A stretch of 64,000 nucleotides of DNA from a virus (taxonomy: Duplodnaviria; Caudoviricetes): positions 205,548 through 269,547 of IMG/VR virus record IMGVR_UViG_3300010355_000898, one strand, 5' to 3'. The notes below the pieces were generated by a model. It was not told the DNA's origin. It searched no databases and worked only from the letters and a program-made list of their open reading frames with translations. The position numbers and the translations under genes were made by a program. This document shows positions 3,907 through 44,416 of this stretch, piece after piece. Each line of letters starts with the position of its first letter. The first letter of the stretch is position 1.

Positions 3907-3942
3907 AGTATCATTGTACGATCAAATGATCAACTATGTACA
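3907..3942 (-). promoter_or_regulatory. sigma70-like promoter TGTACA-N18-TACAAT, 6 nt before ATG
   Basis: Minus strand reads tgtaca tagttgatcatttgatcg tacaat gatact ATG. Confidence 0.55.
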
Positions 3943-4882: not shown

Positions 4883-4923
4883 TATCCTGTACATAACTAT
4901 CACAAATTTGTAATTTGAATTGT

Positions 4924-7055: not shown

Positions 7056-7063
7056 TTAAATAT
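7056..7063 (-). promoter_or_regulatory. Putative late promoter ATATTTAA
   Basis: Same motif as upstream of structural genes; 4 nt before ATG. Confidence 0.5.
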
Positions 7064-7073
7064 TCATTTACAA

Positions 7074-7102
7074 TTTACATAAGAACATTTCAGTTCTATA
7101 AT
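7074..7102 (+). promoter_or_regulatory. sigma70-like promoter TTTACA-N17-TATAAT, 7 nt before ATG
   Basis: Direct reading; no Shine-Dalgarno between -10 and start. Confidence 0.65.
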
Positions 7103-8619: not shown

Positions 8620-8647
8620 TGTACATATGACAGATCGTATGTATGAT
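8620..8647 (+). promoter_or_regulatory. Promoter TGTACA-N16-TATGAT, 8 nt before ATG
   Basis: Direct reading of the intergenic gap. Confidence 0.55.
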
Positions 8648-10560: not shown

Positions 10561-10875
10561 ATGCCATCATCTAGAGCAATTCTTTCAGATATTTTGCATA
10601 AAGGTTTAGATCCAAAAACATCATACACATCAACTGGCAAAGATGGAAAATTGATGCATCATATTTCTGTTGAACAAAAGATTGAGCAACCTGAACAAAA
10701 AATTGTTGAACAGGATGAAGAAATTGTTATTGAAGATATTGATGAAAATATTCAATCTGAAATTGATCAACAAAGTGTTGTTGATATCATAATTGAAGAT
10801 GATGAAAATAAAAAGCCCATTTTGAATTCAAAACAGGCTGAAAAGAATGCACAAAAGAAATCAAAGAAAAAGTAA
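10561..10875 (+). CDS. Hypothetical acidic protein with basic tail
   Basis: GAGGA RBS before ATG 10561. Confidence 0.55.
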   Translation: MPSSRAILSDILHKGLDPKTSYTSTGKDGKLMHHISVEQKIEQPEQKIVEQDEEIVIEDIDENIQSEIDQQSVVDIIIEDDENKKPILNSKQAEKNAQKKSKKK

Positions 10876-11115
10876 TTAGGTTTCTTTTTTGATTTTTGAG
10901 AAAACGTTTTTTTCAATTTGACATATTCTCATTCTTGTTAATGAGAACCATTTTCCTATTGTTTGAAGTGTGTGTGGACCATTTTGTGCTGCTATCATTA
11001 TGCAATTATGATTGTCTTCGCAATTTAACCAATGTTTACATTGTGTTCTTTGACAATGAACATTGTGTTTCATATGAGCGCCAAAACAAGTTATTCCTTC
11101 AACAATATTGTTCAT
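10876..11115 (-). CDS. Stand-alone sigma70 region-4 HTH protein with N-terminal Cys/His cluster
   Basis: HTLQTIGKWFSLTRMRICQIEKNVFSKI aligns with sigma70 4.2 ([27 protein letters not shown]). Confidence 0.75.
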   Translation of the reverse strand: MNNIVEGITCFGAHMKHNVHCQRTQCKHWLNCEDNHNCIMIAAQNGPHTLQTIGKWFSLTRMRICQIEKNVFSKIKKET

Positions 11116-11181
11116 AATTTAACCATCTATGATATAATGTAATTAACGCCTCTGAACATGTTCATTGGCTATGGAGATACA

Positions 11182-26527: not shown

Positions 26528-26555
26528 TGTACATTCAAATGTAATACACTATAAT
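26528..26555 (+). promoter_or_regulatory. Promoter TGTACA-N16-TATAAT, 7 nt before ATG
   Basis: Direct reading. Confidence 0.6.
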
Positions 26556-27528: not shown

Positions 27529-27565
27529 ATTGAACAAACAGCAATAAAATGTTGACTATCTTATA

Positions 27566-31081: not shown

Positions 31082-31465
31082 ATGGCAGAACAAATAAATT
31101 ACAATGCTTTGGGTCAAGCAATTGATACGACCTGGGGTAGAAGTTCAACTCCACTCACATCTGGTTATTCAGTCAAATTTTCACTCTTTGGTGAAACTGG
31201 CATGATTGCTTCATACACAGCAATTGTCAATTTTGGCACAGAAAAACAGATGATTGATATGAAATTGCGTTATCAGGATGAGGCAAACAGAGTTGTCAGT
31301 GAATATGTTAAAGCCATAAAAGAGAGATATAAGTCGTTGACTGGAAAAGCAATAAAAATTGTTGAAAACAATTCCAGTGATTCAATTGAAGTGATTGGCT
31401 TTGGAGTACACAATCCTCGTAGAACAGCGTACTATAGAAAAAAGTTAGTCTTTGAATTGGGCTGA
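31082..31465 (+). CDS. Hypothetical protein upstream of terminase
   Basis: 127-aa ORF following the late motif. Confidence 0.6.
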   Translation: MAEQINYNALGQAIDTTWGRSSTPLTSGYSVKFSLFGETGMIASYTAIVNFGTEKQMIDMKLRYQDEANRVVSEYVKAIKERYKSLTGKAIKIVENNSSDSIEVIGFGVHNPRRTAYYRKKLVFELG

Positions 31466-31466
31466 A

Positions 31467-34265
31467 ATGGCATTAACAGGAAATCCAACAAAAAGTGATC
31501 AGGTAAAAGAGATAATCAGGTGCGGTAAAGACCCAGTCTATTTCATAAACAGTTATGTAAAAATTCAGCACCCATTGAAAGGAACCATACCTTTCAACAC
31601 ATATCCATTTCAGGATGAATGTTTGAAATCATATGAAGAAAATCGTTTCAACATAATCTTGAAATCAAGACAGCTTGGTTTATCAACTGTCAGTGCTGCA
31701 TATGCAGTGTGGCTGGCAATTTTTCATAAAGACAAGAATGTTCTCATCATTGCAACAAAACTTCCAACTGCACAAAACTTTGTGAAAAAATGTTTGGTTG
31801 CTGTTCAAAACTTACCAAAGTGGTTACTTTTGCCAAAATATCAACCATCAAAACAACAGATAGAATTCAGTAATGGGTCAGTGATTAAGGCTATTCCAAC
31901 ATCTGAGGATGCTGGTAGATCAGAAGCTTTGTCATTGTTGATTGTGGATGAATGCGCATTCATACGAGACTTTGATACGATTTGGACAGGTATTTTTCCA
32001 ACAATAAGCTGTTTAACAGGTGATACAAAAGTATTGACTGATTTGGGATGGTCAAATATTGATGAATTGTGCAAAGGAGATATTGGAACATTTTGTGATG
32101 CAAAAGATTTGAATGTTTATGCAAAGAATGGATTTGAATCGGTTTCACATACATACATTTCGCCAAAATCATCATTGAAAATTATCACAACGTCAAGTGG
32201 TAAAAAATTGAAAACTACATTTGAACATCCATTGTGGACCTTGAGAGATGGAACAATTGGAATGATCAAAGCAAATCAATTGAAAATTGGTGATCATTTG
32301 AAATTGAAATTTGGTACACAACAATTTGGCAAAATTGTTGATGAAAATGCATACATTAGTGGTGTGATCTTATCTAAGTCATTCATTAATGATAATGAAA
32401 CATGTGTACAGAATGATGATGTACAAATAGGAGAACGTTTACTTGCAGTAGGGTTTCAATACAATGATGGTATATTCAGATCAGAACGTCAAGAACACAG
32501 ATTGAATTCAATTCCAAATTCAGTTTGGAAAGGTAATAGGCATACGCAATCTCAGTTTTTGAGAGGGTTTTTTGATGCAAATTCACACATAGGCAACACA
32601 ATAATGACATATTCTCATAACAGAGAATTGATGAATGAAATTCAACTGTTGTTGCAAAATTTTGGAATTGTGTCAAAAGTTTATGAATATTCTGATTTGA
32701 AATCAAGGTTATCAACCCCCCCAGTTGAAAACCAAACCAATTGGGTTCTTGAATTGAACAAATATGGCTCTGAATTGTTCAAGAATGACATTGGAATAAC
32801 TGTTGAAAAGAAAATGGGGAAACTATTAAAGTTGTCAGAAAAATATTCTGGCGATGAAAGAATGCAATTTATATTGTCAAAAAAGTTGCAAAGTGTTGTT
32901 GAAACAATGTTGAGAAATGTGATTGACTATCAGAGAACAAGGATATCAAATCACAAAAAATATTCATACATTTCTGATCTGATAGGAAAATTGAGATATC
33001 AGGTTCTTGCAAACAGAATTCTTGAGGATGATTTTGATCTGTCTGAGGATGAACAAACATTCTTTCATGAAATTGGAGAAGAGAGTGTTCTGTGGGATGA
33101 AATTGTTTCAATTGAATGTGGTGATGATCAGATAACATATGATTTCACAGTTCCTGGAACACATACGTTTTATCAGAATGGTATATTGGGAAGCAATACA
33201 GGTGGTCGAGCAATTCTGCTGTCGACGCCAAATGGCGTTGGTGGTCAATATTACAAATTGTGGGTCGATGCAGAAGCAGGTGTCAACAATTTTAATGCAA
33301 TAAGATTGCCATGGACAGTTCATCCAGAACATGATCAGGATTGGTTTGTTAATGAGACCAGAGGATTCACGAAAAAGAAAATTTCACAAGAATATGTGTG
33401 CGACTTCGTAGCAAGTGGTGACACGTTCTTAACGTCAGAAACACTCGAATTGGTTAGACAAGACATAGAAGTACCTTACAAAAAGTCAGAAATTGACAGA
33501 AATGTTTGGATATGGAAAGACCCAGTACCAGGAAAGAAATATATCATTTCAGCAGATGTATCAAGAGGTGATGCAAGAGATTTCAGCGCATTTCATGTTA
33601 TTGACGAAGAAAAACTTGAAGTTGTTGCTGAATATATGGGAAAGATACCACCTGAAAAATTGGGTGATTTACTGAATGAAATTGGAAAATTGTATTGCAA
33701 AGCATTGATTGCAGTTGAACAGAATACGTTTGGATATTTCACTGCAACAAAATTGAAAACAATTGGTTATCCACATCTCTATTATCACAATGCAAGGGGA
33801 GATTACAGATCATATGTGCCATCAGAGGATGAGACACCCGGTTTTCCAACAAATCAGAAAACTAGAACACAAATAACAACAAAACTCGAAGAATTGTTGA
33901 GAAACAGACAACTTCATGTTAAGTCTCAACGATTATATGATCAATTGCAATCTTTCATCTGGAATGGAAATAAACCCATGGCTTCAAAGGATGCATATGA
34001 CGATCTTGTTCTGTCACTTGCAATTGGGACGTGGATGCTCGATGCTGGTGAAGGAAAGAATGCAAATGTTGACATAATGTATGCACTTCTTGGATCAACT
34101 GGTAAAATTGGATTGAAACAGAATGACATTCCAGGTTTCAGGAAAATTCATGATATGTCAATTCATTCAACTTACAAAAATATTGGTGTTGCAAAACCAC
34201 GACAAATGGATGATGTCACAAAAGAAAGACCTGATCTGCTGATTGATACAAGTTGGTTATTATGA
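31467..34265 (+). CDS. terL: Terminase large subunit (T4 gp17-like) with intein
   Basis: KSRQLGLST Walker A, LIVDE Walker B, LLSTPNG, SADVSRG, DDLV nuclease residues. Confidence 0.95.
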   Translation: MALTGNPTKSDQVKEIIRCGKDPVYFINSYVKIQHPLKGTIPFNTYPFQDECLKSYEENRFNIILKSRQLGLSTVSAAYAVWLAIFHKDKNVLIIATKLPTAQNFVKKCLVAVQNLPKWLLLPKYQPSKQQIEFSNGSVIKAIPTSEDAGRSEALSLLIVDECAFIRDFDTIWTGIFPTISCLTGDTKVLTDLGWSNIDELCKGDIGTFCDAKDLNVYAKNGFESVSHTYISPKSSLKIITTSSGKKLKTTFEHPLWTLRDGTIGMIKANQLKIGDHLKLKFGTQQFGKIVDENAYISGVILSKSFINDNETCVQNDDVQIGERLLAVGFQYNDGIFRSERQEHRLNSIPNSVWKGNRHTQSQFLRGFFDANSHIGNTIMTYSHNRELMNEIQLLLQNFGIVSKVYEYSDLKSRLSTPPVENQTNWVLELNKYGSELFKNDIGITVEKKMGKLLKLSEKYSGDERMQFILSKKLQSVVETMLRNVIDYQRTRISNHKKYSYISDLIGKLRYQVLANRILEDDFDLSEDEQTFFHEIGEESVLWDEIVSIECGDDQITYDFTVPGTHTFYQNGILGSNTGGRAILLSTPNGVGGQYYKLWVDAEAGVNNFNAIRLPWTVHPEHDQDWFVNETRGFTKKKISQEYVCDFVASGDTFLTSETLELVRQDIEVPYKKSEIDRNVWIWKDPVPGKKYIISADVSRGDARDFSAFHVIDEEKLEVVAEYMGKIPPEKLGDLLNEIGKLYCKALIAVEQNTFGYFTATKLKTIGYPHLYYHNARGDYRSYVPSEDETPGFPTNQKTRTQITTKLEELLRNRQLHVKSQRLYDQLQSFIWNGNKPMASKDAYDDLVLSLAIGTWMLDAGEGKNANVDIMYALLGSTGKIGLKQNDIPGFRKIHDMSIHSTYKNIGVAKPRQMDDVTKERPDLLIDTSWLL
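32010..33197 (+). mobile_element. Intein with degenerate LAGLIDADG domain (396 aa)
   Basis: PTIS|CLTGDT...TTFEHP...FLRGFFDAN...TYDFTV...NGILGSN|TGG. Confidence 0.9.
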
Positions 34266-44377: not shown

Positions 44378-44416
44378 ATACTTAATTGTGTACAGTGGTC
44401 AATTGTGTTGTACAAT
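44378..44416 (+). promoter_or_regulatory. Tandem late motif (ATACTTAA) and TGTACA-N16-TACAAT promoter
   Basis: Direct reading upstream of the endonuclease gene. Confidence 0.5.

Follow-up and report, generated by a model that had tools for sequence, protein, structure and literature searches.

What does a free-standing copy of the -35-reading part of a sigma factor do in a phage genome? The stretch of DNA analyzed here (the window; 64,000 nucleotides) covers bases 205548-269547 of a 269.5-kb IMG/VR record (G000) that is 74% complete and has 37% GC. It contains genes for a helicase, a PIN-PhoH protein, an SbcC-like protein, a large terminase and a portal protein. It also encodes a 79-aa protein that a sequence-only reading of the window described as a Cys/His cluster followed by a stand-alone sigma70 region 4.2 helix-turn-helix (HTH), and proposed as a possible substitute -35 reader that redirects the host holoenzyme to phage promoters. 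In textbooks a sigma factor is one polypeptide, and the few split sigmas described so far part sigma2 from sigma4. We found that the phage's own RpoD-like sigma lacks exactly the piece that the small protein supplies, which makes a two-polypeptide phage sigma a simpler reading than the redirection of host holoenzyme. On balance, the 79-aa protein is probably the trans-acting, detached region 4.2 (-35) subunit of such a sigma, carried on a four-Cys metal scaffold.

The 79-aa protein and its four-Cys module

The claimed open reading frame is present on the minus strand and is organized as follows.

10876-11115 (-), coding sequence of the 79-aa protein with a Cys4 module and sigma70 region 4.2, stop codon at 10876-10878
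10981-11115 (-), N-terminal module, residues 1-45, presumed metal site with C10, C21, C26 and C38 (C-x10-C-x4-C-x11-C)
10879-10980 (-), region 4.2 HTH, residues 46-79, from Pfam, profile alignment to SigA/RpoD region 4.2 and Foldseek
10918-10938 (-), core of the recognition helix, T60-Q66 (TRMRICQ), corresponding to sigma70 T583-Q589 with E585M and R588C

The protein passes the gathering threshold of Pfam Sigma70_r4 (PF04545; 27.5 bits against a cut-off of 24.1) with residues 42-77, which match only positions 15-50 of the 50-position model. The NCBIfam matches are likewise limited to the C-terminal ~30 residues of RpoD/SigA/SigB-type sigmas, and in PHROGs the protein corresponds to positions 690-724 of the 928-position ‘RNA polymerase sigma factor’ family (PHROG_351). 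Neither Pfam nor NCBIfam gives a region 2 match. The protein is thus not a complete sigma-70 family sigma factor, and both the stand-alone HTH and the absence of region 2 had been read correctly. Profile alignment places the small family on region 4.2 of SigA/RpoD, equivalent to residues 568-600 of E. coli sigma70, with ~40-48% identity over 30-37 residues to the primary sigma region (sigma70; M. tuberculosis SigA, PDB 7kuf/6ono) and the same predicted HTH fold. When the E. coli residue numbers, which we take to be T583-Q589, are laid on the aligned TRMRICQ, the helix changes are those claimed earlier: the equivalents of R584, R586 and Q589 are kept, while E585 is replaced by M and R588 by C. 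Unlike in primary sigmas, this region is free-standing, and the 4.1 helix is largely replaced by the Cys4 module.

The small protein is encoded by 221 IMG/VR contigs, within a jumbo-phage clade with genomes of 190-370 kb. Among known phages, DNA and protein comparisons with GenBank/INPHARED gave no close relative, and no close cultured relative emerged. About 60 homologues were obtained at 90% clustering, and an exhaustive profile search gave 443 family representatives at 50% clustering, almost all of 70-115 aa. All 60 homologues carry PF04545, and the recognition helix is their most conserved segment, with LTRMRICQIEK invariant in 60/60. In the wider family, positions 584/585/588 were read in 147 representatives and are R-M-C in 78, R-E-R in eight and F/H-V-K/C in 13. 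Positions 585 and 588 thus differ between clades (R-E-R, R-M-C, F-V-K), as expected of specificity residues. No fused form was found among proteins of 140-2000 aa, which is weak evidence.

The only invariant cysteines across the 60 homologues are C10, C21, C26 and C38, together with C65 in the helix. Of the Cys/His cluster described earlier (C-x3-H, C-x4-C, C-x5-C), all elements occur in this protein and the module as such is conserved, but H14 and C32 are not kept in the homologues. All four module cysteines are present in 121 of the 147 representatives, and the site presumably binds a metal, either Zn or Fe-S. WhiB-like (Wbl) Fe-S proteins are recognized by a C-x(n)-C-x2-C-x5-C cluster and a G[V/I]WGG turn, and zinc-binding anti-sigma (ZAS) domains by a conserved H-x3-C-x2-C. 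The spacing found here (C-x10-C-x4-C-x11-C) has no CxxC and is accompanied by no GVWGG turn, and no WhiB Pfam match was obtained at E <= 10. The C10-x3-H14 pair does not resemble a ZAS domain either, with H14 unconserved and CxxC absent.

AF2 models the protein as a compact domain by itself (pLDDT 86; helices 10-17, 39-44, 50-56 and 61-78), with a pLDDT of 75-86 in the N-terminal module and of 75 when this module is folded alone. With the whole model as query, Foldseek matched sigma region 4 only, over the 30-37 residues of the HTH and at E > 1, and VIA-wide gave Z <= 2.8. No PDB fold match of the Cys4 module was returned by Foldseek or VIA-wide, with the whole model or with the module folded alone; the module model has 46 residues, a size at which an empty fold search establishes neither that the fold is new nor that a known fold is absent.

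A truncated sigma in the phage clade and in a bacterium

A sigma-domain search of the whole 269.5-kb record gave one strong region 2 match, in a 289-aa RpoD-like protein. Its gene lies outside the window, 54 kb from the small gene and on the opposite strand. It is listed here with a bacterial sigma to which we return below.

G000:C1:161139-162008 (+), truncated RpoD-like sigma of the phage, 289 aa, with regions 1.2, 2, 3 and 4.1
L217:1498-3228 (-), truncated RpoD-like sigma of bacterium G027, 576 aa, from domain matches

The phage sigma scores 73.9 bits for region 2 and 35.3 bits for region 3, and only model positions 2-18 of region 4 are matched. After the sequence ...LSEKEEAILRLRFGL comes a non-HTH tail, and the protein ends where the 4.2 HTH should begin. 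On the Pfam region 4 model, the large protein occupies positions 2-18 and the small protein positions 15-50; on PHROG_351, the respective profile positions are 476-694 and 690-724; on E. coli sigma70, the large protein corresponds to residues 363-567/572 and the small family to 568-600. By domain matches and E. coli numbering, the two genes jointly supply sigma2 and sigma4 without redundancy, and on each of these three independent scales their products are complementary in domain content. The best 120 homologues of the large sigma (258-299 aa, on contigs up to 369 kb) all contain PF04542, mostly together with PF04539, and none contains PF04545 (0/120). They share the C-terminus LRLRFGLvEDxTNsxxYPITEEExxxVMxGKGLT, directly followed by the stop. 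Judged from these homologues, the loss of region 4.2 is a stable family trait. The division is not sharp, however: both proteins have some version of the 4.1 helix end, and part of the first HTH helix may survive in the tail of the large sigma. It is therefore possible that the small protein is a sigma4-like domain sufficient in itself and not a strict complement.

Complex prediction with residues 205-289 of the large sigma and the small protein gave a score of 0.52, compared to 0.07 for the best of three controls, with at least 80% of contacts agreeing between runs and a partner pLDDT of at least 73. In the calibration for this score, 58 of 80 solved complexes and two of 110 mismatched pairs reached the mark, and at scores of 0.60 or under only seven of those 80 did, together with both mismatches. 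The alignments were made for this analysis, and because the structure of intact sigma region 4 has been solved, likeness to it may account for part of the pass. The model gives weak support for an interaction of the C-terminal part of the large sigma with the small protein; in a split sigma, the two subunits would bind each other and core RNAP and would both be required for initiation. No canonical RNAP beta or beta' subunit was detected in G000 or in the complete relative G002, and the host core enzyme would therefore be needed.

Other sigma-like genes were noted in these phages. A gp55-like late sigma (phrog_234) is encoded at G000:C1:190470-191204(-), outside the window, and is common to the relatives and to T4-like marine phages. 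Record G011 contains a second, 229-aa sigma with a shortened region 4.2 (L095:1402-2088(-)), which keeps the recognition helix (VRERIMAIEAKALAKLK) and has no first HTH helix.

The two genes are often found in the same genome. Of the 18 large IMG/VR records with the small gene, ten also encode the truncated sigma, among them all three whose completeness is 90% or higher (G001, G002 and G004). In the reverse direction, eight records have the truncated sigma without the small gene, and all of them are 15-63% complete. Co-occurrence within one phage clade is weak evidence; recurrence in a bacterium is an independent case. The 1.9-Mb bacterial chromosome GCA_037441565.1 (G027) encodes a distant family member of 98 aa (P0286; L201:10001-10297(+)), a Cys4 protein with region 4 positions 20-50 and a canonical TRERVRQ helix, with its gene between a 16S-23S operon, which directly precedes it, and a GTPase gene. 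In both G027 and the closely related G028, a 576-aa sigma contains regions 1.1, 1.2, 2 and 3 and only positions 1-18 of region 4. From these domain matches, the same break point and the Cys4 module recur in a cellular genome. The full-length small protein was found only in G027 and G028 among the 41 genomes searched (G027 and relatives). G027 also carries a second, intact RpoD (L205). A viral scan with P0282 for further lineages was empty, and the contigs of P0287, P0281, P0308, P0318 and P0324 are too short to show a partner.

Small proteins of the F-V-K clade abound in marine T4-like phages (more than 590 IMG/VR contigs), and the genomes differ in the sigma that accompanies them. No RpoD-like sigma was found in G068 (T4-like, 100% complete, with an F-V-K small protein); G069 contains only a gp55-like protein, and G070 an intact sigma including its own region 4. 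The absence of an RpoD-like sigma in G068 and the intact sigma in G070 indicate that the Cys4-sigma4.2 family needs no truncated partner. They also suggest a possible history, with a trans module that was already present letting the phage sigma lose its own region 4.2. On two marine metagenome contigs (L225 and L228), the F-V-K small gene overlaps the stop of a conserved gene of 112-118 aa (motif FFRALV.G..., FIE..KE).

A scan of genome contigs yielded no host link and returned only phage contigs mis-binned into unrelated MAGs, namely of Halobacteriovorax, Methylococcaceae, Flavobacteriales, Legionellales, Aenigmatarchaeota and Myxococcota. The -10 boxes of G002 (TAG(G/A)nT), the many leaderless genes and the best PDB hits, which are to region 4 of actinobacterial SigA, led us to consider an actinobacterial host, which is speculation.

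Non-canonical promoters and the surroundings of the small gene

According to the sequence-only reading, candidate promoters in the window keep ACA in the -35 box and never have G at position 3. Promoter-like sites in the window are listed below.

3913-3942 (-), TGTACA-N18-TACAAT, leaderless, ATG 6 nt after the -10 box
4888-4916 (+), TGTACA-N17-TAATTT, ATG 7 nt after the -10 box
7074-7102 (+), TTTACA-N17-TATAAT, ATG 7 nt after the -10 box
8620-8647 (+), TGTACA-N16-TATGAT, ATG 8 nt after the -10 box, helicase gene
26528-26555 (+), TGTACA-N16-TATAAT, ATG 7 nt after the -10 box
44389-44416 (+), TGTACA-N16-TACAAT, with a 20-nt leader

The four TGTACA sites named earlier and TTTACA at 7074 each lie directly upstream of a gene. 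TGAACA at 27531, credited with a near-consensus -10 box, has only a weak one, GACTAT at N17 or TATCTT at N20. Many sites have the ATG 6-8 nt past the -10 box, which implies leaderless mRNAs.

TGTACA-N16-18-TANNNT occurs ten times in the window compared to 2.6 +/- 1.7 times in shuffles, none of 100 shuffles reaching ten. Genome-wide counts were compared with first-order Markov simulations. In G000, TG[TA]ACA-N16-18-TANNNT was observed 64 times (30.7 +/- 6.1 simulated) and GTGAAA-N17/18-TANNNT 29 times (11.7 +/- 4.0 simulated), with nine cases of GTGAAA-...-N6-ATG (0.2 simulated). The GTGAAA class is concentrated at 60-150 kb, and sites of the TG(T/A)ACA class are scattered and, in the window, drive larger genes. 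TTGACA was rejected as a phage -35 class in G000: it is not enriched in the window (eight occurrences, 6.7 expected) or genome-wide (TTGACA-N16-18-TANNNT 30 times, 23.9 +/- 4.5 simulated). Late-type motifs, ATA(C/G/T)TTA-N4-7-ATG, occur 19 times in the G000 genome, with those in the window at 7063(-) and 23030(+).

The enrichment of non-canonical -35 boxes extends to G002, a complete, 369-kb relative with 56% GC whose small protein has the same invariant helix. GTGAAA-N17/18-TANNNT was observed 46 times in this genome (1.9 simulated), 31 times in the form GTGAAA-N17/18-TAnnnT-N6-ATG (0.1 simulated), and TG[TA]ACA-N16-18-TANNNT 18 times (4.5 simulated). The stereotyped class reads (A/G)GTGAAAG-N17-TAG(G/A)nT-N6-ATG; its sites mostly precede small genes at 19-100 kb, a region that includes the sigma gene of G002. 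Promoter boxes conserved across very different GC contents, together with an invariant phage-encoded helix, favor a phage-encoded reader. Exact TGTACA is unenriched in the relatives G002, G003 and G004; the looser TG(T/A)ACA and GTGAAA are conserved. In G068, neither TG(T/A)ACA nor GTGAAA boxes were found, only the TATAAATAG late motif and a slight TTGAC signal.

The claim that position 3 never holds G hinges on the choice of register. Shifted by one base, many sites become (G/T)TG(T/A)AC, and both -35 classes can be read as (G/T)TG(A/T)A(A/C), with the G at position 3 of TTGACA kept. A match of M585 and C588 to the loss of this G is plausible, but there are two -35 classes and their register against TTGACA is ambiguous. 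The small protein would read one of these classes through its altered helix.

The small gene itself is preceded by a putative promoter of this kind, back-to-back with that of the PIN-PhoH gene.

11136-11164 (-), putative promoter of the small gene, TGAACA (11164-11159), N17, TACATT (11141-11136), 20 nt to the ATG
11130-11138 (+), extended -10 box (TGATATAAT) of the divergent PIN-PhoH gene, read from sequence

The arrangement cTTG(T/A)ACA-N17-TAC(A/T)(T/G)T is conserved upstream of the small gene in relatives of 31-60% GC, and in 79 of 80 related loci its divergent neighbor is PhoH. The two promoters overlap in their -10 boxes (11133-11141), and a perfect 12-bp palindrome, TGAACATGTTCA, spans the -35 box of the small gene at 11153-11164 and is unconserved in relatives. 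Both sigma halves lie behind non-canonical promoters, TGAACA for the small gene and GTGAAC/TGAACA for the sigma operon, which poses a bootstrapping problem if they alone read them.

Some features of the surroundings were noted in passing. The small gene (-) converges with a gene for a 125-aa acidic protein (+); their stop codons abut at 10873-10878, with 0 intergenic bases and no intervening terminator. The likelier start of PhoH is GTG 11182, which follows a GGAG Shine-Dalgarno sequence (11172-11175), rather than ATG 11158; its homologues begin with MKKTYV. The 937-aa large terminase (31452-34265) matches terminase profiles at residues 13-325 and 685-860; its unrelated middle (~353-583) may be an insertion or an intein.

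Alternative roles and relation to known split sigmas

In the split sigma that we consider probable, the 289-aa large subunit would supply regions 1.2, 2, 3 and 4.1 and with them core binding and -10 recognition, ending in its conserved tail (YPITEEE...GKGLT) in place of a -35-reading HTH. The 79-aa protein would contribute the missing HTH on its four-Cys scaffold, presumably loaded with Zn or Fe-S, and the two polypeptides would come together at the beta-flap of the host core RNA polymerase. With its altered helix (E585M and R588C, R584 being kept), the small protein would read TG(T/A)ACA or GTGAAA 16-18 nt upstream of TAnnnT, and many of the promoters so read would drive leaderless genes.

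The existence of the module without a truncated partner keeps two rivals live. The small protein could act as a free-standing -35 reader with the host holoenzyme, taking the beta-flap in place of or beside host region 4 and directing RNAP to phage -35 boxes independently of the truncated sigma. The abundance of homologous Cys4-sigma4.2 proteins in T4-like marine phages, including the complete G068 without an RpoD-like sigma, speaks for this role, as do the conservation of the small gene's promoter from 31 to 60% GC and the compact domain predicted for the protein alone. It leaves unexplained why a sigma with its end precisely between 4.1 and 4.2 is retained in both the phage clade and G027, and the search, which left out AsiA-like genes, found no displacer of host region 4; we regard this role as unlikely. 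In the other rival reading, the small protein works with the gp55-like late sigma: like T4 gp33, but binding DNA, it would sit on the beta-flap in late transcription. The phrog_234 homologue is indeed the only sigma-like partner common to the phage, its relatives and the T4-like carriers. However, the late-type motifs (ATA(C/G/T)TTA here, TATAAATAG in G068) adjoin the start codon and show no evident -35 box, and bacterium G027 encodes its small protein together with a truncated RpoD; we consider a partnership with gp55 quite improbable.

We give a similarly small chance to a decoy or anti-sigma-like inhibitor, or to an ordinary HTH repressor, that would bind the beta-flap or an operator such as the TGAACATGTTCA palindrome. 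Such a role is favored by the overlap of this perfect 12-bp palindrome with the -35 box and by the small gene being a lone antisense gene, with promoters back-to-back to PhoH in 79 of 80 loci. Against this, the palindrome is not shared by the relatives, an invariant DNA-recognition helix keeping R584, R586 and Q589 would be needless for a decoy, and the complementarity with a truncated sigma would have to be a coincidence in two separate lineages.

Beyond the split sigma proper, it is possible, though rather doubtful as a whole, that Cys4-sigma4.2 proteins are a widespread and so far undescribed class of portable -35-reading modules that complete any sigma2-bearing partner at the beta-flap. 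Truncated RpoD-like sigmas would be their partners in these jumbo phages and in one or more bacterial genera; elsewhere, a gp55-like sigma or that of the host may take this place. As part of the same tentative reading, positions 584/585/588 would have diversified (R-E-R, R-M-C, F-V-K) toward new promoter classes, and -35 recognition would respond to metal or redox state through the four-Cys site and the Cys at 588.

Known split sigmas are B. subtilis SigO-RsoA, Tn916 Sig7-Sig8, T4 gp55-gp33 and SPO1 gp33-gp34 (bioRxiv 10.64898/2026.10.01.756105). As in these, two polypeptides here would share promoter recognition, jointly carry sigma2 and sigma4 functions and bind host core RNAP. In contrast to them, the break lies inside region 4 (4.1/4.2) of a group-1/2-like sigma that keeps regions 1.2, 2, 3 and 4.1, and the two genes are 54 kb apart. 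The small subunit also differs from gp33 in being a true sigma70 region 4.2 homologue with a four-Cys module. The T4 AsiA/MotA system resembles the proposed one in that the phage replaces -35 recognition to use non-canonical upstream boxes, but our small protein is itself a sigma region 4.2 domain with no apparent AsiA/MotA homology, and its partner would be a phage sigma without 4.2. For group 2 jumbo phages, Iyer et al. (2021; PMC7824862) noted gp33 and ‘minimal’ sigma factors with a single HTH, small proteins for which binding to the beta-flap was proposed. The phage studied here likewise lacks an RNAP and encodes a late sigma of the gp55 type; the pairing of a Cys4-sigma4.2 protein with an RpoD-like sigma that stops at region 4.1 is absent from that account. 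None of SigO-RsoA, Sig7-Sig8, gp55-gp33, gp33-gp34 or the minimal sigmas splits 4.1 from 4.2 or uses a Cys4-bearing 4.2 subunit, and we found no description of such a sigma in the open-access literature searched.

The findings thus point to a two-piece sigma with its break at 4.1/4.2 as an undescribed way of building a sigma factor, and the recurrence in a bacterium, with a canonical helix, suggests that the design is not merely a phage curiosity. If this is true, the pair would show, as a natural experiment, how much of region 4 has to stay attached to the remainder of sigma. The small protein would offer a compact module for studying and engineering -35 specificity, as positions 585 and 588 vary cleanly between clades. 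It would also show how an uncultured jumbo-phage clade runs non-canonical, largely leaderless promoters with the host core enzyme.
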